From: Botryllus schlosseri
Taxonomy: Eukaryota
Direction of reading: 5' to 3'
NCBI GenBank assembly: GCA_051294905.1
Contig: CM119372.1
Location: 26,476,001-26,540,000 of the forward strand
DNA length: 64,000 nucleotides
Below, piece by piece: positions 4,421 to 28,176 of this stretch. How positions within the stretch are numbered: position 1 is the first letter of the stretch; each line of letters opens with the position of its first letter. The notes under the pieces are model-generated. The model had not been told where the DNA came from. It saw only the letters and a program-made list of their open reading frames with translations, and ran no database searches. A program made the translations under genes and the position numbers.

Positions 4421-4458
4421 ATTCCCCCCAAAATGTCAAAGTATGCCAATATCTCTCT

Positions 4459-7400
4459 ATGAAATTTACCAAGATTTCTCTATATTCCCGAAGGCCTAGA
4501 ACTACAATTCCGGTATCAGAGTGTCTAACTCTGAAAGTTTCATCGATTGCACGCAATAACTTTTCCCTGGCTATTGTACTTAGAGAGATATTGGCATACT
4601 TTGACATTTTGGGGGGTATGAAATTTACCAAGATTTCTCTATGTTCCCGAAGGCCTAGAACTACAATTCCGGTATCAGAGTATCTAACTCAGAAAGTTAC
4701 ATCGATTGCACGCAATAACTTTTCCCTGGCTATTGTACTTAGAGAGATATTGGCATACTTTGACATTTTTGGGGGTATGAAATTTACAAAGATTTCTCTA
4801 TGTTCCCGAAGGCCTAGAGCTTCAATTCCGGTATTAGATTGCATAACTCTAAAAGTTACATCGATTGCACGCATTCACCTTTCCAGGCTATGGTACTTAG
4901 AGAGATATTGGCATATTTCGACATTTTTGGGGGTATGAAATTTACCAAGATTTCTCTATGTTCCCGAAGGCCTGGAGCTACAATTCCAGTATCAGATTGT
5001 ATAACTCTAAAAGTTGCATAGATTGCACGCAATAACTTTTTCCTGGCTATTGTACTTAGAGAGATGTTGGCATATTTCGACATTTTAGGGTGTATGAAAT
5101 TGACCAAGACTTCTCTATGTACCCGAAGGCCTAGAGCTATAATTCCGGTATCAGATTGTATAACTCTAAAAGTTACATCGATTGCACGCAATAACTTTTC
5201 CCTGGCTATTGTACTTAGAGAGATGTTGGCATATTTAGACATTTTAGGGTGTATGAAATTGACCAAGACTTCTCTATGTACCCAAGGCCTAGAGCTATAA
5301 TTCCGGTATCAGATTGTATAACTCAGAAAGTTACATCGATTGCACGCAATAACTTTTCCTTGGCTATTGTACTTAGAGCGATATGGGCATATTTCGACAT
5401 TTTGGGGGGTATGGAATTGACCAAGATTTCTCTATGTACCCGAAGGCCTAGAGTCACAATTCCGGTATCAGATTGCATAACTCTAAAATTTACATCGATT
5501 GCACGCAATAACTTTTCCCTGGCTATTGTACTTAGAGAGATATTGGCATACTTAGACATTTTTGGGGGTATGAAATTGACCAAGATGTCTCTATGTTCCC
5601 GAGGGCCTAGAGCTACAATTCCGGTATCAGATTGTATAACTCTAAAATTTACATCGATTGCACGCAATAACTTTTCCCTGGCTAATGTACTTAGAGAGAT
5701 ATTGGCATACTTAGACATTTTTGGGTTATGAAATTGACCAAGATTTCTCTATGTTCCCGAAGGCCTGGAGCTACAATTCCAGTATCAGATTGTATAACTC
5801 TAAAAGTTACATCGATTGCACGCAAAAACTTTTCCCTGGCTATTGTACTTGGAGAGATATTGGCATATTTCCTCATTTTGGGGGGTATGAAATTGACCAA
5901 GATTTCTCTATGTTCCCGAAGGCCTGGAGCTACAATTCCGGTATCAGATTGTATAACTCTAAAAGTTACATCGATTGCACGCAATAACTTTTTCCTGACT
6001 ATTGTACTTAGATAGATATTGGCATATCTCGACATTTTCGGGGGTAGGAAATTGACCAAGATGTCTCTATGTTCCCGAGGGCCTAGAGCTACAATTCCGG
6101 TATCAGATTGTATAACTCTAAAATTTACATCGATTGCACGCAATAACTTTTCCCTGGCTAATGTACTTAGAGAGATATTGGCATACTTAGACATTTTTGG
6201 GTTATGAAATTGACCAAGATTTCTCTATGTTCCCGAAGGTCAAGAGCTACAATTCCAGTATCAGATTGTATGACTCTGAAAATTACATCGATTGCACGCA
6301 ATAACTTTTCCCTGGCTATTGTACTTAGAGAGATATTGGCATACTTAGACATTTTGGGGGGTATGAAATTGACCAAGATTTCTCTATGTCCCCGAAGGCC
6401 TAGAGCTACAATTCCGGTATCAGATTGTATAACTCTGAAAGTTACATCGATTGCACGCAAAAACTTTTCCCTGGCTATTGTACTTAGAGAGATATTGGCA
6501 TATTTCGACATTTTGGGGGGTAGGAAATTTACCAAGATTTCTCTATGTTCCCAGGGGCCTAGAGCTACAATTCCGGTATCAGATTGTATAACTCTAAAAG
6601 TTACATCGACTGCACGCAATAACTTTTCCCTGGCTATTGTACTTAGAGCGATATTGGCATATTTCGACATTTTGGGGGTATGGAATTGACCAAAATTTCT
6701 CTATGTTCCCGAAGGCCTGGAGCTACAATTCCGGTATCAGATTGTATAACTCTAAAAGTTACATCGATTGCACGCAAAAACTTTTCCCTGGCTATTGTAC
6801 TTAGAGAGATATTGGCATATTTCGACATTTTAGGGGGTATGAAATTGACCAAGATTTCTTTATATTCCCGAAGGCCTAGAGCTTCAATTCCGGTATTAGA
6901 TTGCATAACTCTAAAAGTTACATCGCTTGCACGCATCCACCTTTCCCAGGCTATTGTACTTAGAGAGATATTGGCATATTTCGACATTTTTGGGGGTATG
7001 AAATGGACCAAGATTTCTCTATGTTCCCGAAGGCCTGGAGCTACAATTCCAGTATCAGATTGTATAACTCTAAAAGTTACATCGATTGCACGCAAAAACT
7101 TTTCCCTGGCTATTGTACTTGGAGAGATATTGGCATATTTCCTCATTTTGGGGGGTATGAAACTGACCAAGATTTCTCTATGTTCCCGAAGGCCTGGAGC
7201 TACAATTCCGGTATCAGATTGTATAACTCTAAAAGTTACATCGATTGCACGCAATAACTTTTTCCTGACTATTGTACTTAGATAGATATTGGCATATTTC
7301 GACATTTTGAGGGGTATGAAATTGACCAAGATTTTTCTATGTTCTCGAAGTCTTAGAGCTACAATTCCGGTGTCAGATTGTATAACTCTGAAAGTTACAT

Positions 7401-10400
7401 CGATTGCACGCAATAACTTTTCCCTGGCTATTGTACTTAGAGAGATGTTGGCATACTTAGACATTTTGGGATGTATGAAATTGACCAAGATTTCTCTATG
7501 TTCCCGAAGACCTGGAGCTACAATTCTGGGATCAGATTGTATAACTCTAAAAGTTACATCGATTGCATGCAATAACTTTTCCCTGGCTATTGTACTTAGA
7601 GCGATATGGGCATATTTCGACATTTTGGGGGGAATGGAATTGACCAAGATTTCTCTATGTACCCGAAGGCCTAGAGTCACAATTCCGGTATCAGATTGTA
7701 TAACTCTAAAATTTACATCGATTGCACGCAATAACTTTTCCCTGGCTATTGTACTTAGAGAGATATTGGCATACTTAGACATTTTTGGGGGTATGAAATT
7801 TACCAAGATTTCTCTATGTTCCCGAAGGCCTGGAGCTACAATTCCAGTATCAGATTGTATAACTCTAAAAGTTGCATAGATTGCACGCAATAACTTTTTC
7901 CTGGCTATTGTACTTAGAGAGATGTTGGCATATTTCGACATTTTAGGGTGTATGAAATTGACCAAGACTTCTCTATGTACCCGAAGGCCTAGAGCTATAA
8001 TTCCGGTATCAGATTGTATAACTCAGAAAGTTACATCGATTGCACGCAATAACTTTTCCCTGGCTATTGTACTTAGAGAGATGTTGGCATATTTAGACAT
8101 TTTAGGGTGTATGAAATTGACCAAGACTTCTCTATGTACCCAAGGCCTAGAGCTATAATTCCGGTATCAGATTGTATAACTCAGAAAGTTACATCGATTG
8201 CACGCAATAACTTTTCCTTGGCTATTGTACTTAGAGCGATATGGGCATATTTCGACATTTTGGGGGGTATGGAATTGACCAAGATTTCTCTATGTACCCG
8301 AAGGCCTAGAGTCACAATTCCGGTATCAGATTGCATAACTCTAAAATTTACATCGATTGCACGCAATAACTTTTCCCTGGCTATTGTACTTAGAGAGATA
8401 TTGGCATACTTAGACATTTTTGGGGGTATGAAATTGACCAAGATGTCTCTATGTTCCCGAGGGCCTAGAGCTACAATTCCGGTATCAGATTGTATAACTC
8501 TAAAATTTACATCGATTGCACGCAATAACTTTTCCCTGGCTAATGTACTTAGAGAGATATTGGCATACTTAGACATTTTTGGGTTATGAAATTGACCAAG
8601 ATTTCTCTATGTTCCCGAAGGCCTGGAGCTACAATTCCAGTATCAGATTGTATAACTCTAAAAGTTACATCGATTGCACGCAAAAACTTTTCCCTGGCTA
8701 TTGTACTTGGAGAGATATTGGCATATTTCCTCATTTTGGGGGGTATGAAATTGACCAAGATTTCTCTATGTTCCCGAAGGCCTGGAGCTACAATTCCGGT
8801 ATCAGATTGTATAACTCGAAAAGTTACATCGATTGCACGCAATAACTTTTTCCTGACTATTGTACTTAGATAGATATTGGCATATCTCGACATTTTCGGG
8901 GGTAGGAAATTGACCAAGATGTCTCTATGTTCCCGAGGGCCTAGAGCTACAATTCCGGTATCAGATTGTATAACTCTAAAATTTACATCGATTGCACGCA
9001 ATAACTTTTCCCTGGCTAATGTACTTAGAGAGATATTGGCATACTTAGACATTTTTGGGTTATGAAATTGACCAAGATTTCTCTATGTTCCCGAAGGTCA
9101 AGAGCTACAATTCCAGTATCAGATTGTATGACTCTGAAAATTACATCGATTGCACGCAATAACTTTTCCCTGGCTATTGTACTTAGAGAGATATTGGCAT
9201 ACTTAGACATTTTGGGGGGTATGAAATTGACCAAGATTTCTCTATGTCCCCGAAGGCCTAGAGCTACAATTCCGGTATCAGATTGTATAACTCTGAAAGT
9301 TACATCGATTGCACGCAAAAACTTTTCCCTGGCTATTGTACTTAGAGAGATATTGGCATATTTCGACATTTTGGGGGGTAGGAAATTTACCAAGATTTCT
9401 CTATGTTCCCAGGGGCCTAGAGCTACAATTCCGGTATCAGATTGTATAACTCTAAAAGTTACATCGACTGCACGCAATAACTTTTCCCTGGCTATTGTAC
9501 TTAGAGCGATATTGGCATATTTCGACATTTTGGGGGTATGGAATTGACCAAAATTTCTCTATGTTCCCGAAGGCCTGGAGCTACAATTCCGGTATCAGAT
9601 TGTATAACTCTAAAAGTTACATCGATTGCACGCAAAAACTTTTCCCTGGCTATTGTACTTAGAGAGATATTGGCATATTTCGACATTTTAGGGGGTATGA
9701 AATTGACCAAGATTTCTTTATATTCCCGAAGGCCTAGAGCTTCAATTCCGGTATTAGATTGCATAACTCTAAAAGTTACATCGATTGCACGCATCCACCT
9801 TTCCCAGGCTATTGTACTTAGAGAGATATTGGCATATTTCGACATTTTTGGGGGTATGAAATGGACCAAGATTTCTCTATGTTCCCGAAGGCCTGGAGCT
9901 ACAATTCCAGTATCAGATTGTATAACTCTAAAAGTTACATCGATTGCACGCAAAAACTTTTCCCTGGCTATTGTACTTGGAGAGATATTGGCATATTTCC
10001 TCATTTTGGGGGGTATGAAACTGACCAAGATTTCTCTATGTTCCCGAAGGCCTGGAGCTACAATTCCGGTATCAGATTGTATAACTCTAAAAGTTACATC
10101 GATTGCACGCAATAACTTTTTCCTGACTATTGTACTTAGATAGATATTGGCATATTTCGACATTTTGAGGGGTATGAAATTGACCAAGATTTTTCTATGT
10201 TCTCGAAGTCTTAGAGCTACAATTCCGGTGTCAGATTGTATAACTCTGAAAGTTACATCGATTGCACGCAATAACTTTTCCCTGGCTATTGTACTTAGAG
10301 AGATGTTGGCATACTTAGACATTTTGGGATGTATGAAATTGACCAAGATTTCTCTATGTTCCCGAAGACCTGGAGCTACAATTCTGGGATCAGATTGTAT

Positions 10401-12577
10401 AACTCTAAAAGTTACATCGATTGCATGCAATAACTTTTCCCTGGCTATTGTACTTAGAGCGATATGGGCATATTTCGACATTTTGGGGGGAATGGAATTG
10501 ACCAAGATTTCTCTATGTACCCGAAGGCCTAGAGTCACAATTCCGGTATCAGATTGTATAACTCTAAAATTTACATCGATTGCACGCAATAACTTTTCCC
10601 TGGCTATTGTACTTAGAGAGATATTGGCATACTTAGACATTTTGGGGGGTATGAAATTGACCAAGATTTCTCTATGTTCCCGAAGGCCTGGAGCTACAAT
10701 TCCGGTATCAGATGGTATAACTCTGAAAGTTACATCGATTGCAAGCAATATCTTTTCCCTGGCTATTGTACTTAGAGAGATATTGGCATACTTAGACATT
10801 TTGGAGAGTATGAAAATGACCAAGATTTCTCTATGTTCCCGAAGGCCTAGAGCTACAATTCCGGTATCAGATTGTATAAGTCTGAAAGTTACATCGATTG
10901 CACGCAATAACTTTTCCCTTGCTATTGTACTTAGAGAGATATTGGCATACTTAGACATTTTGGGGGGTATGAAATTGACCAAGATTTCTCTATGTCCCCG
11001 AAGACCTGGAGCTACAATTCCAGTATCAGATCGTATAACTCTAAAAGTTACATCGATTGCACGCAATAACTTTTCCTTGGCTATTGTACTTAGAGAGATA
11101 TTAGCATATTTCGACATTTTAGGGTGTATGAAATTGACCAAGACTTCTCTATGTACCCGAAGGCCTAGAGCTATAATTCCGGTATCAGATTGTATAACTC
11201 TAAAAGTTATATCGATTGCACGCAATAACTTTTCCCTGGCTATTGTACTTAGAGAGATATTGGCATACTTAGACATTTTGGGGGGTATGAAATTGACCAA
11301 GATTTCTCTATGTCCCCGAAGGCCTAGAGCTACAATTCCGGTATCAGATTGTATAACTCTGAAAGTTACATCGATTGCACGTAATAACTTTTCCCTGGCT
11401 ATTGTACTTAGAGCGATATTGGCATATTTCGACATTTTGGGGGTATGGAATTGACCAAGATTTCTCTATGTTCCCGAAGGCCTGGAGCTACAATTCCGGT
11501 ATCAGATTGTATAACTCTAAAAGTTACATCGATTGCACGCAAAAACTTTTCCCTGGCTATTGTACTTAGACAGATATTGGCATATTTCGACATTTTAAGG
11601 GGGTATGAAATTGACCAAGATTTCTTTATATTCCCGAAGGCCTAGAGCTTCAATTCCGGTATTAGATTGCATAACTCTAAAAGTTACATCGATTGCACGC
11701 ATCCACCTTTCCCAGGCTATTGTACTTAGAGAGATATTGGCATATTTCGACATTTTTGGGGGTATGAAATGGACCAAGATTTCTTTATGTTCCCGAAGGC
11801 CTGGAGCTACAATTCCAGTATCAGATTGTATAACTCTAAAAGTTACATCGATTGCACGCAAAAACTTTTCCCTGGCTATTGTACTTGGAGAGATATTGGC
11901 ATATCTCGACATTTTCGGGGGTAGGAAATTGACCAAGATGTCTCTATGTTCCCGAGGGCCTAGAGCTACAATTCCGGTATCAGATTGTATAACTCTAAAA
12001 TTTACATCGATTGCACGCAATAACTTTTCCCTGGCTAATGTACTTAGAGAGATATTGGCATACTTAGACATTTTTGGGTTATGAAATTGACCAAGATTTC
12101 TCTATGTTCCCGAAGGCCAAGAGCTACAATTCCAGTATCAGATTGTATAACTCTGAAAATTACATCGATTGCACGCAATAACTTTTCCCTGGCTATTGTA
12201 CTTAGAGAGATATTGGCATACTTTGACATTTTAGGGGGTATGAAATGGACCAAGATTTCTCTATGTTCCCGAAGGCCTGGAGCTACAATTCCAGTATCAG
12301 ATTGTATAACTCTAAACGTTACATCGATTGCACGCAAAAACTTTTCCCTGGCTCTTGTACTTGGAGAGATATTGGCATATTTCCTCATTTTGGGGGGTAT
12401 GAAATTGACCAAGATTTCTCTATGTTCCCGAAAGCCTGGAGCTACAATTCCGGTATCAGATTGTATAACTCTAAAAGTTACATCGATTGCACGCAATAAC
12501 TTTTTCCTGGCTATTGTACTTAGATAGATATTGGCATATTTCGACATTTTGAGGGGTATGAAATTGACCAAGATTTC
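4459..12577 (+). repeat. 159-bp satellite array, left part (~51 monomers), with a 2858-bp (18-mer) higher-order duplication
   Basis: Monomer GGGGGTATGAAATTGACCAAGATTTCTCTATGTTCCCGAAGGCCTAGAGCTACAATTCCGGTATCAGATTG... repeats head to tail. The variant series recurs at an offset of 2858 (5064/7922, 5249/8107, 6680/9538, 7289/10147). Confidence 0.97.
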
Positions 12578-12852
12578 GGAACTCCTGCACCAGACGCCGT
12601 CCTTTACTCGTACATGTGAATCACTATCTATTTAGTGTTTCACATGTATTTTTTATCTAAACTCAAGTGTTTCCCCATGAACATCGAAATTACGTATACA
12701 TTTTAGGGCTTATAATTCATGTATTGCATATAGAAGCAAATGCAACAAACAACCAATCTTCGCAGTACTACTTCTAAACATTTAAAGCAGATTCAAACAA
12801 GAAAAAAAATATTTTTTATTTTTTTATTTTTAATTACCTTTTGCCCACGACT

Positions 12853-13425
12853 TTATGCGCTGTTCGATCGTGTTCGTTTCACGATCCCGTGCGCGAGTCG
12901 TATATGTGAGTTAGGGATAGGGTCTTCACATAAAACTACGTCCGAATTGGGCGATTGCAATAGAGTTAATCCCAATTTTCGGAGATCGCATGAGTCCATT
13001 TCTGAAGCAGCTCCCCGAATATATTTATAGCTTGGCTCCTGTATGCTGAGGTGTACATACCTCCTACCCATACGTCTGAGTTCGCTATTCATGATTTGTA
13101 TGGCTCTGGTACGTGTAGTCATATGATACAATTTGTCATTATTTAAATATTGTTCATAATGAGGGGGTTCTCCCACGGTATGTCCCTGTGTGGCCGCCAA
13201 CCCTTTATCCGAGACTACCGCTCTGGTACTGTCCCGCATTATCTGTTTTAGCGTGGCCATCGGGAGATCCCTCCCCAACTTCTCTTTCAGGAGTTGTTGT
13301 ACGTTTTCCCAGGGATGAATACCGTTTTGACTGTTATCACATACTTCGTGTCTACAGTGACGTATCAAAAATCTCTGCACACTTTCGCGATCTCGTGCGC
13401 TGTTGACTGTGTGTCCCTTGGTGTT
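12853..13425 (-). CDS. C-terminal extension of pol, in frame after a single TAA; unknown function, no DDE integrase core
   Basis: Same frame as 13426-15294 with no other stop between 13425 and 13380. The segment RHCRHEVCDNSQNGIHPWENVQQLLKEK loosely resembles a degenerate integrase HHCC helix region. Confidence 0.5.
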   Translation of the reverse strand, partial: NTKGHTVNSARDRESVQRFLIRHCRHEVCDNSQNGIHPWENVQQLLKEKLGRDLPMATLKQIMRDSTRAVVSDKGLAATQGHTVGEPPHYEQYLNNDKLYHMTTRTRAIQIMNSELRRMGRRYVHLSIQEPSYKYIRGAASEMDSCDLRKLGLTLLQSPNSDVVLCEDPIPNSHIRLAHGIVKRTRSNSA

Positions 13426-15294
13426 TTAGCTTGAAGGACGAGCCGTCCATACTCCGGGGTCATCTTCTCCAGCAGCCATCTCCATCCAGTAAGAGCGGGA
13501 AAGGCCGTCGGAAGTAAACACTTGTAAGGTACTCAAGTGTATCACCTTTTCGATTTGGAAACCCGATAACTGATTGAGCCACCGTTGAATTAGTGGTTTA
13601 GGGCTTGGGTTCTTGGCATTGTCTGTCATTCTTTTCAACAGCCCAAACACGCCCATGTTGTCTGTGATGATTGTGAACGGTAGTGCGCGTAACATCGATT
13701 GCCATTTTTCCACAGAATCCTTCAGAGCCTTTAGTTCTTTTGTACAGGGGTCGTACACTTTCGCCGTGGGTGTAGCCCATTTTTGGCTGTAAAAGGCGAT
13801 AGGGTACACCTTGTCGAATGGTGGGGTACATCCCACTTCAGTCTGAAATATCACTGAACCAAAACCCACATCAGACGCATCTGATTCGACATACAAGGGA
13901 AGATTTGGGTTGAGATGATACAGCACCCTTGTATCGTTTAGCAGGGCTTGCGCTGTCTTGAAATCCTGCAGCAATTCTTTAGTCCAAAGCAACGGTGTTA
14001 TCCTGCCCTGAGTCGCTGGAACTTTTCCAGTGAGAGCATCAAACTTAGCCAGTTTTAGGCTCAACTCCGGTATATGTTCTGAGATATATCGAAGTGCACC
14101 AATCCACCCCCGGAGTTCGTAAATATTGTGGGGTGGCGCAAGTTCTTTGAGCGCTCGCACTCGTTCGGGCTGAACTTCGATTTCCTTACCCGTTACGGTT
14201 GCACCCAGCAGATTTACCCGTCGTTTACCAAAGAAACACTTATTGATGCTTACAGTCAGTTTCATCTTAGCCAGTTGTTCAAACACCAGTCGTAATAGCA
14301 CCAGGTGATCGTCGACTGTCTTCGTACTTAGAAATATATCATCAATGTAGGCCTCGATGGGCGTCGCTGTAGCTTCGTCCAGACGACCATGTTCTTTCAT
14401 GCACTTCCGGTAACTCTCTGTGATAGGCGTGACCACGCATTTCTGCATATTTGACATCCAAAAAGCCAGAGAAATGCGGAGCCCCATCGGCATCTTGCGC
14501 CATCGTATATGCATTCCCTTCACAGCAATGCCTACATACTGCTTAGACCTTTCCGTCATATCCATGTGGAAATAGGCCTTCTTCAAGTCCAGCAGGGAAA
14601 GTACCTCTCGGCCTTGCGCGAGCTGCTTTACGTCAGGTACAAGGGGTGGGGGAACCTCTATAGACTTGATGGCTGCATTCAGAGGCTGAAGATTTTGTAC
14701 AACCCTCCACGCTTGTTTCCATCCGTCCTCTTGTTTTTGCCGTTCATTCATTTTCTGGGGTACCACGAAAATGGCCAGTTTCCATTGGGCAAACCCTTGT
14801 TCAATGACTCCCAAATCCAGGAAGTTTTCTACGGATTCTTGCAATGCCTTAGCCTGTTCCTCCCCCTTCAGGTTATATGGACCTGACACAAATGGTTTGG
14901 TAGAGGGGTCCTTAAGTTCAATGTCACATTTATAATCCATAACTTGTGGAGCTTTGAGATGACCTCGCAGGTCTTCAAGTTCGTTCGCGTACGGCTCGTA
15001 AATCTCTCTCCAAACCTGGTCCGGTATGATTGTATTATCCGGACATGTGAGGTCCGGAGGTTTGTATGGAGATTTGGCAAGTTCAACTGCTTGGCTGCAT
15101 AGCCGTTCCAACTCTGTCCTCACTTTCTTATCAGTTCCATCATACAGTTCATACGTTTTTATCGGGCCACGACCATGTCTATAGAGGCCGTGGCGCGGTT
15201 TTGATGCCGGTGGAGAGAGAGCGAGGGTATCAGTAATCAGTGGGGCTTCCACACTCGATTTTTTTCTGCCTCTGAAGGGGCTGCGTGCCCGCAT
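13426..15294 (-). CDS. pol: Reverse transcriptase-RNase H, Ty3/gypsy-like (Ortervirales type)
   Basis: RT motifs: WRVVQNLQPLN, LLDLKKAYFHM, MPMGLR, YIDDIFL, KCFFGKRRVNLLG. RNase H motifs: VESDASDVGFGSVIFQ, YPIAFYSQK, KELKAL, IITDN, SDGLSR. Confidence 0.95.
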   Translation of the reverse strand: MRARSPFRGRKKSSVEAPLITDTLALSPPASKPRHGLYRHGRGPIKTYELYDGTDKKVRTELERLCSQAVELAKSPYKPPDLTCPDNTIIPDQVWREIYEPYANELEDLRGHLKAPQVMDYKCDIELKDPSTKPFVSGPYNLKGEEQAKALQESVENFLDLGVIEQGFAQWKLAIFVVPQKMNERQKQEDGWKQAWRVVQNLQPLNAAIKSIEVPPPLVPDVKQLAQGREVLSLLDLKKAYFHMDMTERSKQYVGIAVKGMHIRWRKMPMGLRISLAFWMSNMQKCVVTPITESYRKCMKEHGRLDEATATPIEAYIDDIFLSTKTVDDHLVLLRLVFEQLAKMKLTVSINKCFFGKRRVNLLGATVTGKEIEVQPERVRALKELAPPHNIYELRGWIGALRYISEHIPELSLKLAKFDALTGKVPATQGRITPLLWTKELLQDFKTAQALLNDTRVLYHLNPNLPLYVESDASDVGFGSVIFQTEVGCTPPFDKVYPIAFYSQKWATPTAKVYDPCTKELKALKDSVEKWQSMLRALPFTIITDNMGVFGLLKRMTDNAKNPSPKPLIQRWLNQLSGFQIEKVIHLSTLQVFTSDGLSRSYWMEMAAGEDDPGVWTARPSS

Positions 15295-16309
15295 CCAACT
15301 TCACGCCGGCGGTTTCAACGCCCGCCGGGGGCCCTTTTTCTGGAGAGGCGTGCATATGGCCTCCAGACTCTTCTTCATCCACAAAATTTGTAGTGTGGAT
15401 GTCGACAGCTGCTTTCAATGCTATCTTCTCGGTTTGCGGCACAACTGCTGCGGCCATGGAGCCGTCGTGAACGATTCCCACTCTTCTATCGTGGCGAATG
15501 CAGTAGCCGTAGTTTTCAGGAATCTCTTGAACATGTCGTTCCTGAGAGGTGCTAGCGGGGCTTCCGCGCTCAGCACGCAAGGATTTCGGGGTCACAGCGC
15601 TCACCCGACTTAATTTTGTATCCGTGGTTTCTCCACACTTGGCGCAAAATCCTTCCGAGAGACAGGGACATCTATGGTCCCGAGGGGCGTCAGCTGGGCT
15701 TCCAGTCTCGACGCTATGTAACGTTGCAGCTTCCACCGACCCATCACCAGTAGCAGCGTTGCAAGTACTGCTCCCAGCTATGGTTTTTGCCGTGTCCGAA
15801 TACACGGACAATGATAGTTCATAATTCACTGTAGTGGGATCCTTCAATTCTGTCGCTACTGAGGGTAGCCGTTGAACTTGCTCAATCCACTTTAGTCCGA
15901 TAATGTTCAACGGGACTCCTTCACCAGTTGCAAATGGAACCGGTAAGTTGTCCAGCTTGATGATGACGACAAAGTCGACACTGGATGATCCTCCTATGCC
16001 GCGTAATTTCATATCGAGTTGCTGCCTTTCAGTCCAGCTTTCTGGGTAGGCCGCTTTAACCGCATCTTGGGTTATCAGGTTAGGAACACTTCTTGTATCC
16101 GCAAGAAATTGTGTACCTGTTTTTGTGTCTGTAAAATACAATAATTGGCCGCCAAATAAGTCCCTAAAATCGGGCTGCGGCATTTTGTCCGGCAAATCGA
16201 AAAATGTAAATAAGGGTAATTCAGAGTTATGTATAGTCTTTGTATAATGGTGTAACACTAAATCGGGCAACTGATTTACCGGATCCATCAGCGCCCCCAA
16301 GCGTTTTTT
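15230..16309 (-). CDS. Retropepsin-like protease region, reached by -1 frameshift from gag
   Basis: FLADTRSVPNLI is a DTG motif with G->R. The flap-like LRGIGG and C-terminal NIIGLKWI (ILGxD/W-type) motifs are present. It lies between the zinc knuckle and RT. Confidence 0.75.
   Translation of the reverse strand, partial: KKRLGALMDPVNQLPDLVLHHYTKTIHNSELPLFTFFDLPDKMPQPDFRDLFGGQLLYFTDTKTGTQFLADTRSVPNLITQDAVKAAYPESWTERQQLDMKLRGIGGSSSVDFVVIIKLDNLPVPFATGEGVPLNIIGLKWIEQVQRLPSVATELKDPTTVNYELSLSVYSDTAKTIAGSSTCNAATGDGSVEAATLHSVETGSPADAPRDHRCPCLSEGFCAKCGETTDTKLSRVSAVTPKSLRAERGSPASTSQERHVQEIPENYGYCIRHDRRVGIVHDGSMAAAVVPQTEKIALKAAVDIHTTNFVDEEESGGHMHASPEKGPPAGVETAGVKLDAGTQPLQRQKKIECGSPTDY
16262..16309 (-). 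promoter_or_regulatory. -1 programmed ribosomal frameshift signal (A AAA AAC plus downstream stem-loop)
   Basis: The gag frame reads GCA AAA AAC GCT TGG GGG CGC TGA, and the -1 frame opens the protease ORF. GGGCGCTGAT...ATCAGTTGCCC can pair about 6 nt downstream. Confidence 0.8.
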
Positions 16310-18750
16310 GCCAGCACCAAACCCTGGTGCAATTCCTCATCAGTCCAGTACGGGTTATTACTGGGTTGGAATTGTGGGTGATAATGGGGTTCGTGATATT
16401 GGGTTTGGTGATATTGGGATGGGGCATATTGAGGTTGGGTCCATGCGACAGTATTAGCGTTATTGGCAGGCTGACCCCCCGTATTTGGTGGTCCTTGTGG
16501 CCCCCATTGCTCTCTATTATGCCAATGCGTCTTGTCACGATTTTTGGGTCTATCGTCATAATAATTCTCACATAGGGTGGTTCTCTCAATGAACGAGGGA
16601 GACCCCTGGGACGCAAAATACCGGTCCAAATCGGGTATTGTTAGTAGTTGGTTAGCCTCCAAAAAAGGAAGCCAATTTCTCTCAGTTGTTTCTTTGACAT
16701 GGGCGGGCACCGGTCGAACACGTTTTCTTATAACCCAGCCCAATACATCATCTTTAGTCAGTACTTGATCATTCAGCCATAATATGAATTTTACCACGCA
16801 ATTGCGAGATTGATGCCCCGGTGATTTACAATAATAACAGACCGACAAGGCCTGTCCCTGCGAGGGGTTTAAATACAATCCTAACGGCGCAAATATATTA
16901 GGGTTGCCAAGGAAATTATACCTCTCACCTTGGGTGTTCGAAATCTGGCTCGCCTCTTGACTGTTGGACGGCGTCAGCTGCGAATGGTCAACCCCGACAC
17001 CCGAATCTTAAGTCTGCGGAAGGCCGCGCCCCCTCTGGTCTGAAGCTGGCATCCCCGGAGTCGGTCGTGCGTTCTGAGAGTTTCGTGGACGCTGGCCGTT
17101 GTTTCTGCTCGCGTCGGGCTGTCTTCCCGACCTTCCTAGGACCCTCGATCCCGTCTGCCTCTCGGGTGCAGCACTCCTTCGATAGGGGTTTCCACCAGCC
17201 ATCACGGCATTAGGAAAACGATTTGTTTTGGCTGTACGACCAGGATTTCGTCGTGGCAGCGGATTACGATCCGGTGCCGGGTTTCGCTGACGTCCGGTTG
17301 CTTGCGCAGACTGGGGAGGCCTGCTAGCAGGCATGGGCGGCGGAGGGGGCGGTGGGGCTGAATTTATCACGGCAGGCGCTGTACCAGCTTGCACCGGTCG
17401 AGTAGGATAACTCGGCATTATCTGCCCCGCCGGTTGCACATTATAGATATGCACTGGTGGTAGGGGTGGCACAGTATCAGCATTCTTTCGCTTACTGTTG
17501 TGTTTGTCTTTTCGGGGGAATCTTCCCTCTTCTTGATCATCCAAAAATTCCGTGTTCCAGAACATCTGCAATTCCTCAGCCACATTTCTCCAAGAGCCAT
17601 ATTCATACCCACGGATTAAGATCCTAAGGGCCTGAGGGAGTTGACGTCGTAAGTGTCTGAAAAGGCGCAGTCCATCCGGATTTTTCGTGATACAATCACT
17701 CATATTAATTTCAAGCTGCTTTAGCGTGCTGTTGAGCAGTGGTAGTGGTTCGTCGTCCCAGGAGTAGTTATTTCGAAACTCATTTATGATTTTCTCATTG
17801 TTCGCCAATCCTTGTGGGTTGGACAATGATAGAGATCGCATGACAGACTCCCAGCTGGGTTTACCAGAATTGGTATTGAAGAAATTTCCCAATTGCCTGA
17901 CTTGTTTTTGGCGTCCAGCTTGTTTCAGCTTTTTCTGCATCGCATTTGACAATATGATATCTTCGTTAGTATCACCCTCCCCATGCTCAATGCGCTCCAT
18001 TGTATTCGCCATCCATTTGACGAGCGGCATGTCATCAGGGTCCATCATGAGCTGCATCATTTCTTTCTCAGTCTGAAGTCTGGCAGGTCTTTCGGCAACA
18101 TGTACTGTATGTGCATGAGCCCGGTTGCCAGCAAGCTCCCCATACGGGCCGCCGAATTGTCGTTGTGGGCGATTGGGGCTCCCATCAATGTCATCAGGGG
18201 TAGATTGAAATCTAGGTGGTCCTGTTGTGAACTGAGAAGGCGCATAATCTTCATCAAAATAACCTGGACCCCTAAGCGCGTCAAACAGCTCATCTGGTCG
18301 GCGTTCATGCTGTCGTGGCAAGTCATTTGGAGAGGGGCCCTCACATTTTGGCTCTCCTCCCTGGGAGACCCGGCCAGCTTCTTCGAAAACCACATGCCTT
18401 GTCTCATCAGGTTCACTACGCGCCCGACGCTTTCCTAGCGCGTTGAAAGTTAGTCGTACATTGTCCCGGCCATTCCTGGCTACCCCCGCCTGCAAAAACC
18501 TTGACGGTTCGGTGTATCTGGGTAGGTAATCGTCATCAAATCGCACTTCGACGTCTGATCCAGGGCCATTTTTAGGAGCAGGAGCGGGCATATTGTCTCG
18601 CTCACACCTGTCCAGGGACCTCGATCGCATCTGTTCCATTGCGTCCGACAGTCTCTGGCCGGGCGTCGTAGTCAGTCGAAGTGCAGGACCGGCCTGTTGT
18701 GATGTTCCGGTGCGACGAGCCGATGATGTTCGGGCCGTCTTACGTACCAT
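16288..18750 (-). CDS. gag: Gag-like polyprotein (~820 codons) with a CCHC zinc knuckle, interrupted by one in-frame TAA at 17008-17010
   Basis: ORFs 17008-18750 and 16288-16878 share a frame, and I read no other stop between them. Knuckle CYYCKSPGHQSRNC (CX2CX4HX4C); helical capsid-like middle; Pro/Arg-rich linker; located upstream of pro-pol. Confidence 0.8.
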
Positions 18751-18806
18751 ATCTCCAGATTTTGATCCGGGTAGAGTGGGATAGACTGCCGTTACTGTAT
18801 GACAAT

Positions 18807-19295
18807 CTAGGCCTTTGGTAACCTGGAGTTTAGGTCGGAGCGTCGCCCTATCGGTGCCTCGTCCAGATTGTTGATCGTATGACGATGGTAGCGTGGCAGG
18901 TAATATTGCGAGAGCGGGAGATGGTCGGGGGGGGGCTTATCTCCGACCGCTCTAGTGTGTTCTCTCCCTAACTCAAACTCGGCCTTCAAGACTTGATTCA
19001 GTACATCAGTGGACACTTTACCACTGACTTTAGCTGTGGCATCGCTGACTGCTTTCAAATCAGCTTGGGCCTGTTTAACCTCTTCTTTGGCTTTGTCCAA
19101 TTCTTTTACCGCTACTGGCAAAACTGCTTTGACGTCCTGAAGGAGCTTCGTCTGTTCAGCGGCGCTTTGAGCTAGTCTTTTCTCCTGGTCTCTTACGTTT
19201 TCGTGACGCCTTTGCGTAGCTTTGAACAGTTGTATACCCTGCTCAAGCTCAGCAACCGCCTCCGGCGATTTTTTCTTTCGGAAGAATTTCTTCAT
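18807..19295 (-). CDS. Small coiled-coil protein with basic N-terminus upstream of gag (accessory or matrix-like; unknown)
   Basis: ATG-initiated 162 aa, starting MKKFFRKKK and followed by heptad-rich Ala/Glu/Lys/Gln sequence; co-oriented, ends 57 bp before the gag ATG. Confidence 0.6.
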   Translation of the reverse strand: MKKFFRKKKSPEAVAELEQGIQLFKATQRRHENVRDQEKRLAQSAAEQTKLLQDVKAVLPVAVKELDKAKEEVKQAQADLKAVSDATAKVSGKVSTDVLNQVLKAEFELGREHTRAVGDKPPPDHLPLSQYYLPRYHRHTINNLDEAPIGRRSDLNSRLPKA

Positions 19296-19611
19296 CTCGC
19301 CTCCCTATTGACGGGCGATTTTGTTAGAGAACCGCTTGTTCGTAGTACCGATCTCTAAATCAGCTGCAAATCGCCGCAAGTAGATAGAGTTCAGTCTGGC
19401 AAATAGCGTGATCAGTACCGAGATGAAGGTGACGAAAGACAGAGTTCGAACAACGCAGGGATCGGGTCGCATCAGCTTCCAGCTCCCTTCTTATGCGAGT
19501 GGGGCTCAAGTAGTTACTTTTGACGCCGCTGAGAAACGGTTGGGACCTCCAGTAGTTTATAGTGTAGCTTGAGGTCTTTGTGGCCTCCAAGTAGCCTACA
19601 CTGTGTTCATA

Positions 19612-20050
19612 GGTGTCCGGTCAATACCGAGAAAACCATTACCGAGAATGCCATTACCGAGAATGGACACCACCGAGAATGGACATTACCGAGAATGGAC
19701 ACCACAGAGAATGGACATTACCGAGAATGGACACCACCGAGAATGGACATTACCGAGAATGCCATATATGCAATGCAGGCATGTTGTGCATATGCACAGG
19801 TCGTGTGAGTGCATCACGGCGTTGCCACATTCAGTAGCGATGCTCAGGTATAAATTTCTCGACAACGTCAGTCCCAGTTAGCTATATTCTTGACATTGGC
19901 CATTCTCGGTAATGTCCATTCTCGGTGGTGTCCATTCTCGGTAATGATCATTCTCGGTAATGTCCATTCTCGGTAATGTCCATTCTCGGTAATGCCGTTC
20001 TCGGTAATGTCCATTCTCGGTAATGGTTTTCTCGGTATTGGTATAGAACC
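19612..20050. mobile_element. Foldback-type MITE (Mutator- or Merlin-like) with internally repetitive TIRs
   Basis: 9-bp TSD GTGTTCATA at 19603-19611 and 20051-20059; GG...CC ends. Arrays of ACCGAGAATGGACA(TT/CC) on the left are mirrored by CCATTCTCGGT arrays on the right. Confidence 0.88.
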
Positions 20051-22635
20051 GTGTTCATATACCTCAGCGGATGCAAAAGTTCACTTGATGTATGTCTTTG
20101 TGTGATCCCCACTCTTTTCGGCGAAGTCGATCTTTGATTGAAGTCTTTGTAGTTGCAGCAGCTACAGCAATGACCGTTCAAGGCCCAGATGACTATTATA
20201 ACTCTTATACGGTAGCCTATAACCTTAATACAACCAAATACTCCAATCAGGTCGTGCAGATAACAATAGGGCTTCTCTATGCACATTACACATACTGATA
20301 AAAAACCAAAAGTTAACCTATTTATCATCATGCACGATCTAAAATCAAAATAATTCTCCAAGGTTTGTTTTCACAATAGATGTGATGGCCTTTCCTGCCA
20401 GATACATAATATGCAAGTGATATGCCAGTAGATGCCCACAAAAGTATCAGCACTCAGAGTCCAAGCCAACCAATTGGCAGATCACCAGTTCATTCATAAA
20501 AGTATCACAGTCTTTGCAGATTGCAGGTGTATATGTATATACCCATTTTCAGTTGAGGCATTGATTTCTTGTTGAGTCGTTTCTTCAAATCCTTTCGTGT
20601 CATATTCGGGGACAGGGAATTCCATCAGGATACGGGGGTTCGTGCGGGGCTCTGTAGTAGCGAGATTTCAAATTCAATATATCTCGAATACTGTTCTGGT
20701 TTGGTCCATCAGTTCATCGACTTCATGGACCTGTACCGACGCATTTATTCGCACTGCTTCATTTCTGTGTACCTTACAACTGTGGCAAGCAGGCGATCCT
20801 ATCAATGTATGCTTGAGAGCCTTTACGGGGACATCCGAACATCACCCTATGAGCCCAAACGACGTCAGACTCTTTCAATGCCGTCGTCAATGTTTTGTGG
20901 ATGTTCTGCTTCGGTGGTGGTGGAGGTGGTGGTGGTGGTTGAATTTGGCATCCATGCTGCCTACATGGGTAACAATTGTTCACAGCAGCTGCTATACAAT
21001 TCGTGTGGGCACCACATGACACATAGATATAAAATGCATACACTAATATAAAATAACGGCAACACTTACTGCAAAAGTTCGCATGCACGAAAAATGGTGG
21101 CCCCATTTAATGGCAGCATGATCGTAAAACTGGCATGCATACGACAATTCCATATAAGCATCACTCTATTTTCGACACATTTGCATCGCAAACCATAGTT
21201 TCAGTTCCGTACTGGTGATTGAATGGCTACGCCGCACTACATAGAGACGCCAATCAGATTATCCAGCCAGGCAAATATACCACAAGTTATGGCCAGCTCA
21301 TTCCAATCAACCTTCCGAAACTGCCCACTCTTTTCCAATCATTAAATTTAGATGGTATTTAAGATTTTTTTTTTATTATGACCAGGGCAAGCTGTGCCCT
21401 GCTAGGCATAATACTTATATACTTTTATATTTGATTTTCGATTTCGGGGTCCATCCACTCTTACATAGGGGCGGGAGGATATAGCCCATACTCTGCAATT
21501 ACGCATATAGGTTCGATTCCAGTGTCAAGAATGCCACCGTCTTAGCTCAATGAACACAGCTATCGTGCCAAATATGGCGCACTACTAGTGATATTATTCT
21601 TGACCAAGTATTATTCAGAATTACTTTCTTCGAATTGTCTTTATGCGTAAGGTTACAGATTTATAATTATAATAATCAATACAAACAAGACAGGGTGATT
21701 ACATATCTGTCGCTTCCGCGATGGCTTATTCCGTATTAGCAGCTTCATATGGGTAGCTAGGCGATTCATATAGACCACCGCTATTCTTTTCAGTTACTAT
21801 AGCCTTCTCCATACTCTAGTAGCTATAATGGTGCTATTTTCTTAGCTTTTAGGTGGGGAGGACCTTATCGGAATCCTAAAGAGACCGTGTCGATCTAATT
21901 AATATATACATAACTACATATTTGACTCATATCATCAATATTTCATTTTTGTTAGTACACTGATATATCACAAAACAAGCGAATTCCAAGCATCCCGTGT
22001 ACAGTACATATTTTTTTGTTTGTAATATTTTATTCGGCATGTTCAAAAAATGAAATATGCACGTTGAATAAATATACTCGCGACTTCGGTCACCTTGCGA
22101 AAATGGAAAAACATAAACGCAGAACAAAACCCACCATTTACGGTGGTGGGGAAAAGATTTTATTTAACAAAAAATAAATGCGAGAAATCACAAAATGAAA
22201 ATGCGATAATATATTGACATGGGCCAGAGAAGACATGGCCAGTTCGCCCGGGGACGGGGGGCACCAACAAACAAAGGCCTCCACCAAAAACACACAATAT
22301 ATGTGGTGGAGGCCGACAAACAACACAAAAATAAGGGGGCGAACTGGCGAGGTCCGACTGCGGGCATTATCATAAGTATTGTGGTGATGAAAATCCAAAA
22401 ATGAAGTTATGCAACATGAGGTGGGGGAACTCCTCCCCTTAGCATTTAGTACCACTCTGAAACTAAATTCGAAAACTAAAACTATCAGGGGTCCATTTAT
22501 GTTAATTTGGGGAGGAGTTCCGTGAATCAATCCAGTGTCCAGTTGCCTGCAGTCGAACCCCGTGATGGCTAGCGGACTAAGCTAATAACCAGAACACAAA
22601 ACACATAACAAATAAAAAGCACGTGAAGGGGGGGA

Positions 22636-25600
22636 TCAAGTCCTCTCGTGGTCCCGCACACTACACCAAGCCTTCCAGACACGATGAGAGCCGCGCTGAG
22701 AAGCGACCACGGCTCGCTCGGAGACCAGTCTGGACTCGAAGACCGAAACACCCATTGCACGTAAGGTGGTCAGGTTCCCGGGGTGGTAACTCCCCAGGGA
22801 CCCGACCGCGAACGTATGCATCTCCACCACCTTGGCCGTGGCAACGCGGAGAGACTCACAGAGGTCCTTGTACTTTGAGTGTTTCAGTGCAACGGCAGCG
22901 TCCATACTGGCTACTCCATTCTCGAAGGGGCACACCACATCGATGACCAAGACCCGGCGACGATCCGCTAAGATGAGGTCGGGCCTCAGCCGCCTGTTGG
23001 CCAATGTGGCGTGCTCCTCGCAAACGCGGTCCACATCGAATCTGGAAAAAGAAGAGGAGCTTGGTATACAGTCCAGGAGCACCCCAAGTACCGAATTGTG
23101 CCTGTTCGTGATGCTATCCATCACTGGCAGGCAGTGGTTCAGTACGTGGGGCAGGGTCTCAGTATGCTGTCCGCACTTGCAGCAGACCACACTTGGCTCC
23201 ACACGTTTTCTAAACCGACCCCGGATCGACCGGAGCGGCAGAAGATTCAGTCGAGCTTTAAGCATCCAGCTACGCTCGACTGCCGTCAGGACGTTGGAAG
23301 ACCGGAGGAAGCGATTGGAGCTCCCGTACCGGCTGTGGCACTCCACAGTTTTGCCCTGGTCGGGAAGCTCCATCCACCGTGTCTTCCAACGTTGGTTCAC
23401 CTTCAGGTGAAGGAATTTGGTTAAACGACCCAAATCCTGACAGCAGTCGGCGCCTAGAGCCAACTGGTAGAGCCCGTCTTCGGTCACGAACCAGCGAGCA
23501 CCGAGACGCCTAGCAACGGGTCGGACCTCGGTCCAAAGCCCGTAGGCGTCTCCGTACGCCCTGGAATCGTGCCCTGTTAGACTCACGCAGTTCAAGAACT
23601 CGACTGTCAGGGTCTCCGACGCCTCTGGGACTCGGCAAGTCCTCCGGACGACCAGCGCCAACCTTCCACGCGCAACCGCCCGCACAGAGGGGTCAGTGGA
23701 ATTGACCATTTTGACGGCCTGGGAAAGCCTCAACACATCTGCTTCGCAGCAGAGGTTGGGAATCCCCAGACCGCCAGTCGTCAGCCCAGCATGGAAGAAG
23801 GGCTGACACGCTCTGTTAGGGAGGCGGAATTCCGCCTTCACCAACGTGCGGACACGCGCATCCAGGCGACGCAGATCGCCTCGGAAAAACTTGCGGATTC
23901 TCAACTGAAAAAGGATTCTTGGAATAACGAACCTCTTCAGTGCGAGCAGCTTCTGAAATGAGGTGAGATGTGACAGGAAAAGTCTGTCACAATAGGCCTC
24001 GAAAGTTTTAAGGGCCTTCCCACCTTTCTCGGTTGCCTGGTAACCCATGTTCTTGCCCAGGTATCGCCAGAAAGAGTCACGATCGAGGACCCGGACCTCG
24101 CCACCATCGAGGCAGAACGGGGCCGAGTCCACGATCGATCGGCTTCCCTTGAAACCCAAGGCAAGAACACGACACTTGGCGGGCTTGAACTTCATACCAG
24201 ACCACCGAGAAAATTCATCGCACAGATCTAGTTGTGCTTGAAGCTGGTCGCGAGACGAAGCACACAGACAGGTGTCATCTGCGTAACCCTGAACTCTGAC
24301 GGTGACGCCATCCGCTGCAGAAAACCGATAACCGCTGCTTTGAAGCCCAGCAACGCCACGCAGGAGAACCTCCATGACCAGGTTGAAGGTGATGGCCGAT
24401 AAAGGGCATCCTTGACGGACACCCTTCCCCGCTGGAATGGGGTCTGTCGGACCAGAGCTGGTCGCGACTGCAAACACGTTAGACGCGTAGATATCGGTCA
24501 TCACCTCCACCAGATACTCCGGGGCGTTAAAGTGCTTCAGGACCTCGATCACGGATCCATGCCGAACGGTACCGAATGCATTGCGGATGTCAAGCCAGGC
24601 AAGATAAATATCCTGCCTTGACGACTTGGCATCCGCAAGCAAGGACTCAAGCATGAACACGTGCTCGAAGACCCCCTCTCGCGGAACAAACCCCTTTTGT
24701 TCCATGGAGATAACGTCTCCATCGGAAGCCCAGCTCTGAAGACGGCGAGCGATTACGGACGCGTAGATCTTGTACAGCGTCCTGGATAGCGCGATGGGTC
24801 TCCAGTTACCGACGTCTTGCATGTCGCCGTCGCGGTCCTTTGGAATCAGGATTACCCGCGACGAGCGCCACACAAGTGGAATACGTCGGCAACGCCTACA
24901 GACTTCGAAAAGCTCAGAGAGGATTTCTCCCTTGGGGTCTAAGCGTTTCCAAAATCCATAGGTGAGACCATCGGAGCCTGGCGAACTACTGGTGTTTAGG
25001 GTCGCCAGCACTCCTGCTACCTCTGATGAAGTAATCGACTCGTCGTCAACAGCAGAAGCCAGGTTGCCCTGGTAACTGTGCTGAGACATCCAGCGAGGAA
25101 AAGCAGCAATATTATCAGTGACGTCAGCGGCGGCGTCAGCACGAAATTTCCGCTCGATTATGTCGGCAGGAATTTCGCACCGTTTACCGCCAGAATCATC
25201 CTCGATGATCTGTCTGACCGTTTCCTTCTGATTGCGCCAGAAAGCGGACCGAAGATGTTGGGCTGCCCCAGGTCGACACTCGCGCTGGCCATTCAATTGA
25301 TTGACCTTAGCACGGCGTTGTGCTTCGCGCGAGTATCGGTTCCTAGGGCGTTTACGGCCGGGAGGGCGGCTGCAATCAGAGGCACGGTCAGTCCAGAGCT
25401 CCAGCTCACGTTCAAGGTGCCCGAAAGCCTCGATGGTGTGAGGACATTCTGACACCAAGTCCGCAAGCTCCGAGCGCAACTCGCGCAGATCGACTTGTGC
25501 ACGAGGTGCGCCCGGTTCGGGAGAAGGCACGTCGACATCTATTTGGTCGCGTGCATTTACCGAAGGAGACAATCTCGTCGGGCTTTCACAGCCGCCGACA

Positions 25601-27138: not shown

Positions 27139-28176
27139 CGAAGAAAATTGCGGAATCTAGGCCTAAAGGTGACCGAGTCGCGACCTATTACAAATAATAA
27201 TATGAATATAGCCAAAATCAACCCACGAATACAATTAAACGAAATGAAATTAGAAGTGGTACAATAACAAGAAGCAAAGACTAAGGGGCCTGCACCGGCG
27301 TTCGCTATTAGAGTGGATAGGAAAGAGCACAATACAAACGAATACAATACAAACGAATACAAACGGACAATTACACTTAAAAGGTTAACTAAGGGTTCAC
27401 AAAGGAATAGCGAACGCGTTAGGATGCAGGCCAGACGTAATTGTATACCCACGCCGGACTTGATTGCCCCCGCGTCAGCAGCGCTACTGCTACGCCCTAC
27501 ACGTATGTTAACGCGAACGGTAAAAACGAAATTTACCTTACGAATGCGCGTTAACACCCGGGTTTTCCTCGCCTTTGCAGATCGACGGCTCTTTCTTGAT
27601 ATAGATGTTAATTCCCAACGATTCGCCGTCGATCTTACGCCGTCCTTACGAAGCGGTCTTGGTGTTCTCGATATTCCGCTTCTTATGATGTTGTTTTGGA
27701 CGGCGTAGCAGTTCGTCTCGCTGCTTTGAAGATGCTTTGCAGCGAGGTGGCGAGGAATCCCGACGTGTAGGGCCTCGACCAGAGTTACACACGGCAGCCT
27801 TTCTGCTATAAACGAACAGTTAAGGCAAGCGATCCAAGATCACTCCGGTGGTTGAACGACGTGTTCAAATCACACCGTACCGTGGCAAAAGCAACGGAAT
27901 TGATGGACTTCTTCGTTGCTTATCCCTTGTTGCAGCGTAGACGGCTACGCCTTAGTTGAGCAACAAGGAATCTCTGGCCGGCGTTGGAATTGTAGCTCCG
28001 GAATAACTAACCTTTCCGGAGATTCCAACGTTGTAGCAGGAGATGGTGTTCAGATGACCCACGGCAGAGGCGCGGCAAGCGGCTGCTGAGACGGAGGCGG
28101 TCGAAGAATCTTCCTGTCGAGTTGAGTAGTCCGGCGTGGGCGGCGTCTTCGGTTGAACGAACGTAGAGCTTTCGTG

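Follow-up and report, generated by a model that had tools for sequence, protein, structure and literature searches.

Gene content and insertion site of the element

The window analysed in this study is a stretch of 64,000 nucleotides from Botryllus schlosseri (assembly GCA_051294905.1, contig CM119372.1, positions 26,476,001 to 26,540,000 of the forward strand), and the subject is a mobile element of 31,662 bp, inserted at 12578-44239, that carries retrovirus-like genes together with a Merlin/IS1595 transposase. The insertion interrupts, in register, an array of a 159-bp satellite (4458-12577 and 44240-50148; about 51 and 37 units with 91-92% matches). It is flanked by an 8-bp target-site duplication (TSD), AAGATTTC, found as a left copy inside the satellite (12570-12577) and a right copy at 44240-44247. 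An initial annotation of this DNA had quoted several motif strings at the ends, all of which are present at the coordinates it gave, and had noted that the duplication could also be read as 11 bp. This longer reading is rejected as chance: alignment of the ends of multiple copies gave 8 bp in all 16 copy pairs of the family. The three additional letters occur in the window copy alone, where the satellite fortuitously reads ACC. The 16 insertion sites are weakly palindromic, with an A-rich first half and a T-rich second half.

Every gene of the element is encoded on the minus strand: first the Merlin/IS1595 transposase, then two envelope-like genes and, beyond a long non-coding stretch, gag and a protease-reverse transcriptase (RT)-RNase H-Tpt1-like gene. 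The transposase (42956-43893; PF12762, E 1.6e-11) has a DDE triad, with D, D and E aligned in 19 of 19 rows, and a phase-1 splice acceptor at 43894. The envelope-like fusion glycoprotein gene (40278-42686) shows by eye a signal peptide, a basic cleavage site, a hydrophobic peptide and a C-terminal membrane anchor, and the Atlas neighbours of its product are viral fusion proteins at a weak 0.88-0.90. The second envelope-like gene (35378-39286) encodes a mucin-rich glycoprotein with one in-frame stop in this copy and no Pfam match. A gag-like region with a CCHC zinc knuckle occupies 16288-19304 and has a conserved phase-1 splice donor at 16929/16928. The pol gene (12853-16336) comprises a protease region, RT, RNase H and a Tpt1/KptA-like region and has no integrase; rve integrase gave no Pfam match in the 11 frames scanned. 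Both gag and pol are broken in the window copy, pol by a frame break near 15230-15300 and a stop at 13426-13428. Among the ranked PDB matches, the best solved structure for the RT is 8r0s (E 2e-39), which we take to be a caulimovirus RT, followed by Ty3 (6e-33). The pol gene terminates after the Tpt1-like domain in the window element and in P0005-P0009. This domain (12853-13425; PF01885, E 1e-8) resembles the RNA 2'-phosphotransferase Tpt1/KptA, ends pol at the position of an integrase, and also occurs in P0005-P0007.

Copies and lineages

End searches identified 21 distinct left and 19 distinct right termini of the family, 16 of them paired. Apart from the window element, a single full-length copy, at about 95% identity, was present among the pairs examined; the remainder are derivatives that retain both ends and have no RT, no env and no transposase. 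The wider set was divided into eight lineages, labelled A-H, with the window element in A. A same-strand Merlin transposase lies within -82 to +4 kb of 58 of 67 RT matches, a count that took 67 of 82 RT and 102 of 116 transposase matches, with short fragments dropped. The RT-linked transposases form a single clade separate from four stand-alone Merlins (support 100/100). Five other lineages have GG..CC ends with an 8-bp TSD in 19 of 20 elements, a perfect TSD not being located for the twentieth; this search presupposed GG..CC ends, and alignments between copies stop at the same places. Two further lineages have such ends and TSDs in four of seven elements; for three of the seven D and H elements the ends were not located.

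Lineages D and H have ends of the same kind and the order gag-pol-transposase-env-env, which is a circular permutation of the order in lineage A. The transposase tree groups H with A (98/98) and the RT tree groups D with E (93/97); judged from these trees, D and H are not sisters.

Terminal inverted repeats

According to the initial annotation, the termini lack real terminal inverted repeats (TIRs) and their similarity stops after 5 bp. Our analysis does not agree on either point. When the two ends are read inward without gaps, the left, pol-side end (12578-12600, plus strand; 24.4 bits with a profile that includes this end) and the right, transposase-side end (44217-44239, minus strand) match at 14 of 23 positions, including 10 of the 18 beyond position 5 (P=0.005 against random element sequence). 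Identities of 11-14/23 were found in all 16 family pairs. With one element taken per lineage, 14-17 of the 23 TIR positions are identical and only 2-9 of the following 23 bases; over the eight lineages as a whole the TIR is 21-23 bp long with 11-17/23 identity. All 16 ends compared from the eight lineages share G1, G2, C5, T9, a purine at position 19 and C21, and family ends show GG at 21 of 21 left and CC at 18 of 19 right termini.

Nor do these repeats lie outside the Merlin range, as had been supposed; they fall at its short and imperfect margin. Passages of PMC8101967 give Merlin TIRs of 24-462 bp with GG ends and 8-9-bp TSDs, and describe families with TIRs of 23-29 bp and a family with 12 mismatches in 26; because short and strongly mismatched TIRs are described there, the ends are read as imperfect Merlin TIRs. 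We are nearly certain that they are degenerate Merlin TIRs accompanied by boxes and junction-like internal pairs, and hold with the same assurance that they are sites for the transposase. The TIRs by themselves are an imperfect-end variant of Merlin, and the novelty rests in the element and its proposed cycle. The ends of the four stand-alone Merlins were not found in the stretches examined around them, so there is no TIR comparison within the genome. A search for remnant TIRs deep in the interior gave only two weak matches (11.5 and 13.2 bits), near background.

Hairpin and subterminal boxes

The long hairpin that had been reported at 12611-12648 is present, with 15 of 16 arm pairs and -11.0 kcal/mol as DNA, and none of 300 shuffles attained 14 of 16 pairs. 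As a conserved structure it was rejected: by eye, changes break pairs without compensation. Of 21 copies, just 15, 12 and 11 keep the outer three pairs, and 18-21 keep the inner ones. Since pair changes disrupt and do not compensate, the hairpin is read as two inverted boxes of about 12 bp. The left end has three such boxes, one inward (12613-12624) and two outward (12635-12646 and 12667-12678), the first two forming the hairpin and the third being the conserved half of motif A. A profile trained on the left-end boxes finds two boxes at the right end (44138-44149 and 44160-44171); the third (44189-44200), the box half of motif A, was recognised only by eye. The profile has 1-5 matches in the ends of B, C, D, E and G and in the 3' end of H, with a chance expectation of 0.4 per end, and no match in F or in the 5' end of H.

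Motif A, the resemblance noted earlier between 12654-12680 and 44177-44200, is present in direct orientation and consists of a box and a spacer. The box occurs in 21 of 21 left and 19 of 19 right ends, whereas the spacer half, TATCTA(A/C)ACTC, occurs in only 6 of 21 left and 10 of 19 right ends.

Internal copies of the terminal inverted repeat

About 140 bp inside each end, two copies of the TIR stand back to back, 5 bp apart; we call these arrangements pseudo-junctions. The left one (12705-12755) has an outward copy at 12705-12727, which contains TAGGGCTTATAAT, a 5-bp spacer and an inward copy at 12733-12755. The right one (44074-44124) has an inward copy at 44074-44096, again containing TAGGGCTTATAAT, a 5-bp spacer and an outward copy at 44102-44124. 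A full inward copy lies 133-146 bp inside the transposase-side end in A, B, C, E and two of three D elements, and internal copies reach 16.5-27.3 bits; the highest background score over 41,554 positions is 12.1. The back-to-back pair with 5-6-bp spacing occurs in A at both ends, and in all four B, all five C and both E elements; the weaker of its two members reaches 2.9-10.9 bits, and the null maximum, taken from 150 stretches, is -1.5. Within family A the pair is found in 18 of 21 left ends, and both members are above zero in 13 of 16 untruncated right ends. On the pol side the structure is restricted to family A and one close relative.

These copies explain motif B, the 13-mer TAGGGCTTATAAT that had been reported at 12704-12716 and 44073-44085 in the same orientation and permuted order. 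It is the inner half of one TIR-copy member at each end, and its direct orientation follows from this. The orientation and the order stand, but a check of the exact motifs among copies showed that only about half carry them: the exact 13-mer is present in 10 of 21 left ends, in 10 of 16 untruncated right ends, and at both ends of 7 of 14 pairs.

The internal copies appear, judged from breakpoints in other copies, to be cut. In L018 and L020, which belong to different sub-lineages, deletions of 45 and 56 bp begin directly after the left outward copy, a 128-bp inverted piece begins at the right inward copy, and a lone right unit without a TSD (L041) stops at the right outward copy; the breaks in L041 and L070 are at TIR termini of the right pseudo-junction. 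In total, four of five non-insertion breakpoints near the ends coincide with internal TIR termini, two insertions of other elements being excluded from this count; the fifth (L037) lies elsewhere.

Based on the sequences, the boxes and internal TIR copies are likely to be sites for the transposase rather than strand-transfer signals. The initial annotation had left both functions open, and the second is unlikely because the motifs are parts of boxes or TIR copies, are not conserved letter by letter, and stand far from the tRNA primer site, 7 kb from the nearer end. That the element has no real TIRs, and that its direct motifs serve strand transfer in reverse transcription, is hardly credible: it is favoured by the direct orientation of the motifs and by a motif B that reaches about 24 bp in some copies, but TIRs exist, the exact motifs are absent from the pol-side end of lineages B-H, and strong-stop DNA would start 7 kb away. 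The lack of motif conservation largely refutes this explanation.

A composite transposon, in which two decayed terminal direct repeats of the KolobokP kind, each a TIR-bearing unit of 140-150 bp, flank a TIR-bounded body, is distinctly improbable. KolobokP offers a precedent for terminal units with their own TIRs (PMC9587614). The end units of family A (12578-12727 and 44102-44239) are likewise TIR-bounded and align directly, not inverted (scores of 52 and 20, shuffle maximum 44), and the lone right unit in L041 would fit. However, the units are short, diverged and confined on the pol side as stated above, the lone unit has no TSD, no multimers were found, and the primer site and the orphan acceptor of the transposase, which are described below, would be left unexplained.

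Evidence for an RNA step

An internal primer-binding site lies before gag at 19534-19551 (minus strand); its distance to the left end is 7 kb, and to the opposite end 18-25 kb. In the window copy it contains an 11-nt run complementary to host tRNA-Gln; in other lineages 18 of 18 positions match tRNA-Ile or tRNA-Thr. Of 20 coding loci, 10 match at 18/18 and one at 17/18; runs of 8-15 nt occur in A, F and G. Three different tRNAs are matched at the same place. An initial test with four tRNA types gave no match, and a later targeted test was positive. Host genes for tRNA-Thr, tRNA-Ile and tRNA-Gln with complementary 3' ends gave 17, 10 and 51 pattern matches versus 0, 0 and 2 for controls, and tRNA genes were checked by ARAGORN at 7 loci. 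A 24-bp non-coding motif (20224-20247, minus strand), nearly invariant in all eight lineages, is situated about 215-290 bp before the primer site, and further from it in the window because a nested miniature element intervenes. This motif is a candidate signal for the start or end of the RNA or for strand transfer. No LTR (long terminal repeat)-like or long direct repeat was found in the element.

Further evidence comes from an 800-bp GT-AG intron (16129-16928, minus strand) running from the conserved gag donor to a cryptic acceptor. The donor has identical synonymous letters in six lineages; among neighbouring sites, none of the 27 four-fold and 3 of the 32 two-fold ones do. It is mutated in one of two C copies. 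The intron region is kept in 11 of 14 non-autonomous copies; all 11 break exactly at the canonical donor and 10 resume at the canonical acceptor, the intron being precisely gone. The chance of a random deletion matching the intron is about 3e-7. The element has therefore passed through a spliced RNA at least once, and such a step is probably routine. Other deletions of the non-autonomous family (15053/13299-13309 and 20166/17333) were considered and are not splice junctions.

It is rather unlikely that the element is a giant cut-and-paste Merlin DNA transposon with retrovirus-like cargo, comparable to Teratorn, that moves as DNA and is only occasionally reverse-transcribed. This explanation, and the equally doubtful corollary that the intron was lost through a single cDNA (complementary DNA) recombination and that the internal TIR pairs are self-regulation sites before the transposase gene, would agree with Merlin-type ends and TSD (PMC8101967), with the multiplication of copies that have no RT, and with the mostly transposase-side conservation of the pseudo-junction. 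On the other hand, purifying selection on the RT is strong (within-lineage dN/dS is 0.05-0.09 for RT and 0.11-0.15 for transposase), no stop interrupts 47 of its 52 closest full-length matches, the primer site tracks three different host tRNAs, and all 14 non-autonomous copies, which have no RT, retain it. A transposase without a start codon in this layout also argues against it: no usable in-frame ATG precedes the conserved transposase N-terminus in A, C, D, E and most B copies, while a phase-1 acceptor precedes the gene in seven of eight lineages. No donor common to the lineages is found within the 290-345 bp between this acceptor and the terminus.

A proposed circle model

An internal primer site and the lack of an LTR-like repeat mean that cDNA can jump only on a terminally redundant RNA, and joined ends are then needed. 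The splice sites point the same way. In D and H the gag donor is about 4 kb upstream of the transposase acceptor; in the linear layout of lineage A this likely donor lies far downstream of the acceptor, and it would be 4.7 kb upstream only if the ends were joined. Replication through an end-joined DNA circle is the best model, and we favour it with moderate confidence. The ends would then likely serve this retrovirus-like element, which has no integrase, as its attachment site. Circle formation is described for a bacterial insertion sequence (IS) of the IS1595 family (PMC12561309).

In the proposed cycle, the transposase would form a circle in which the ends meet across a short A/T-rich spacer. 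From this circle, a promoter ahead of the primer site would drive synthesis of a terminally redundant RNA that crosses the junction. The gag donor would be spliced to the transposase acceptor, in this layout only across the junction, and the predicted product, a Gag-transposase, would be packaged together with RT. Reverse transcription primed by tRNA would restore the circle in a pararetrovirus-like manner, and the transposase would open the junction and insert the element with an 8-bp duplication. The end units, if joined, would form a junction-unit-junction-unit-junction array, and the permuted direct repeats may be the units of such an array cut at its middle junction, which matches the permuted order reported for motif B. 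The spacing of the pseudo-junctions resembles, by analogy across families, the TIR junctions of an IS256-family enzyme with an 8-bp TSD, for which integration was best from junctions with a 6-bp, preferably A/T-rich spacer (PMC7780238).

An improbable alternative is a linear read-through RNA from a host or terminal promoter that spans both ends and is reverse-transcribed; the transposase would then cut the cDNA back to the TIRs, with the internal copies as spare ends. Reads do extend past both termini into flanking DNA (21 and 27 cross the left terminus), and the internal copies appear cut. Yet priming at such distances from both ends cannot copy the downstream part without a repeat, and none exists. 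The 21 left and 19 right ends included no case in which an internal TIR, with its own TSD, formed the boundary of a copy.

Several observations weigh against the circle and the routine RNA step. The circular intermediate proposed in the initial annotation is likely in view of the primer site, the orphan acceptor, the permutation and the intron loss, but its joined right-end/left-end junction is not present in the genome assembly (0 matches), and mining of reads found none among the loose ends listed from 7 runs, a shallow search covering 3-6% of each RNA run; these results, which agree with the cargo explanation, are why we infer the circle rather than report it. No DNA copy of a spliced gag-transposase was found in lineage D. 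The intron loss was probably one founder event, as that explanation also supposes, and the lost intron uses an acceptor not conserved in D and H. Single-cell RNA shows a sense-strand pile-up at 12773-13005 (depth 158-190), mostly from copies that have no RT. Because it adjoins AATAAA at 12820/12828, much of the RNA may end before the left terminus; this signal occurs in only 11 of 21 left ends, and the pile-up possibly arises from priming on an A-rich tract. No clear polypurine tract was seen, and three of six D loci had no primer-site match under the scoring used. The TIR pair is weak in D and H and shifted in two G elements, and lineage F has neither a pseudo-junction nor the phase-1 acceptor. 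The transposases of F and G, the lineages in which the gag donor is weakened, have their own ATG. Direct alignment of the end units exceeds the shuffle maximum in only three of seven pairs.

Tentatively, and somewhat short of an even judgement, we read the element as an enveloped, pararetrovirus-like element of an animal that integrates via a Merlin transposase; its ends would be one attachment junction cut mid-way and circle closure a genetic switch. On the same tentative footing, only excised circles would make the integration enzyme, because closure puts the gag donor upstream of the start-less transposase gene.

Comparison with known systems

The element shares with Merlin/IS1595 (IS1016) the DDE_Tnp_IS1595 domain with its DDE triad, 5'-GG ends, an 8-bp TSD and short imperfect TIRs (PMC8101967). 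Unlike Merlin, it has gag, a protease-RT-RNase H-Tpt1 gene, two env-like genes and a tRNA primer site, a start-less transposase, internal back-to-back TIR pairs and a size of 8-40 kb. A plain Merlin is a single transposase gene with no RNA step, a description that gag, pol, the env-like genes and the intron loss of this element do not fit; the term 'reverse transcriptase' does not occur in the Merlin paper (PMC8101967).

Retroviruses and Ty3/gypsy elements (Metaviridae) have two LTRs, a primer site beside the 5' LTR and a TSD of 4-6 bp. The element resembles them in its CCHC gag, protease-RT-RNase H, env-like genes and an 18-nt primer site before gag, and in lineages D and H the transposase occupies the position of their integrase. 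It differs in having no integrase, no LTRs, an 8-bp TSD, TIR ends and a primer site far from the ends. Caulimoviridae infect plants and have a movement protein and no encoded integration enzyme; the Pfam scan of the frames gave no match for the movement protein. The likeness lies in the tRNA primer motif, the absence of an integrase and of an LTR pair, and the RT, whose best match is 8r0s; Caulimoviridae have a circular dsDNA genome (PMC9719215) and a terminally redundant RNA, whereas for this element both are predictions. The animal host, env-like genes, encoded transposase, TIRs and TSDs set it apart from them.

Teratorn, a fusion of piggyBac and a herpesvirus, is comparable as a virus genome combined with a DNA transposon in a TIR-bounded unit, and its excision to a circle has been proposed (PMC10175614). 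The present element differs in its reverse-transcribing partner, its Merlin enzyme and the signs of passage through spliced RNA. ISCth4 (IS256 family, copy-out/paste-in) shares asymmetric TIRs, an 8-bp TSD and TIR-TIR junctions with an A/T-rich spacer of about 6 bp (PMC7780238). Unlike ISCth4 and KolobokP, the element has another transposase family, an RT, and junction-like pairs fixed inside its ends.

Overall, the element would work like a pararetrovirus with a transposase and fits neither Metaviridae, Caulimoviridae nor plain Merlin. Mobile elements are classed by polymerase type and integration enzyme, and PMC5718144 asks whether undescribed pairings of the two exist; RT-Gag-Env with a Merlin/IS1595 transposase and TIRs is such a pairing. 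No description of an RT-Merlin element was found in the literature searched, which excluded Repbase, Dfam, most subscription journals and supplements. The end anatomy gives a first testable cycle, with a predicted junction, a splice across it and a cDNA start. If true, it would mean a circle-type (copy-out/paste-in-like) route for a eukaryotic Merlin enzyme, pararetrovirus-style replication linked to active integration in an animal, and a new replicator-integrator pairing among reverse-transcribing elements.

Relatives, nested elements and neighbouring sequences

Related protease-RT-RNase H(-Tpt1) proteins without integrase occur in other assemblies (40-52% identity), and two marine metagenome contigs carry a related pol (47-51%) and are too short to reveal a transposase; IMG/VR yielded no relative. 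A Merlin gene is missing from the neighbourhood of four RT matches that are more distant (44-47%); an env-like gene is present in the two of these that were read over about 40 kb. Distant relatives in L175-L182 (G000 C3 and C1; RT 44%) have pol and an env-like gene and no Merlin transposase in about 40 kb; in one of them a long open reading frame is duplicated in inverted orientation, and the ends of these relatives were not found.

In many B, D and H elements (L305, L140, L138) there is a further Merlin transposase gene, distinct from the first and likewise with a DDE triad, which forms its own clade. An 8-kb B-type derivative (L328-L329) keeps both ends, the primer site, gag and pol and has lost env and most of the transposase. 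A 3.7-kb segment without a long open reading frame is common to the non-autonomous copies (L048:1600-5700 and 13 others) and missing from the window copy. The 350 bp next to the right end hold insertions of other DNA elements in at least three copies (L042, L046, L334). What looked like a tandem on contig C5 was rejected: the flank is duplicated as well, and it is therefore a segmental duplication.

The window copy is enlarged by two nested elements. A GG..CC miniature element of 439 bp (19612-20050), with a 9-bp duplication and TIRs of 16-bp repeats, is likely another Merlin-type family; it is missing from the second full copy, and a second copy of it (L334) is near the right end of a relative on contig C7. 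A non-LTR retrotransposon foreign to the element (22015-28203, minus strand) has N-terminal zinc fingers and RT in a 1506-amino-acid frame, a layout we presume to be R2-like, and was inserted without duplication and with the loss of a few target bases. Outside the element, 1641-2624 forms an inverted pair with 50142-51886, of a family also found inside some copies, and 59791-64000 is a 4-kb piece 92-98% identical to an insert in a copy on contig C13.

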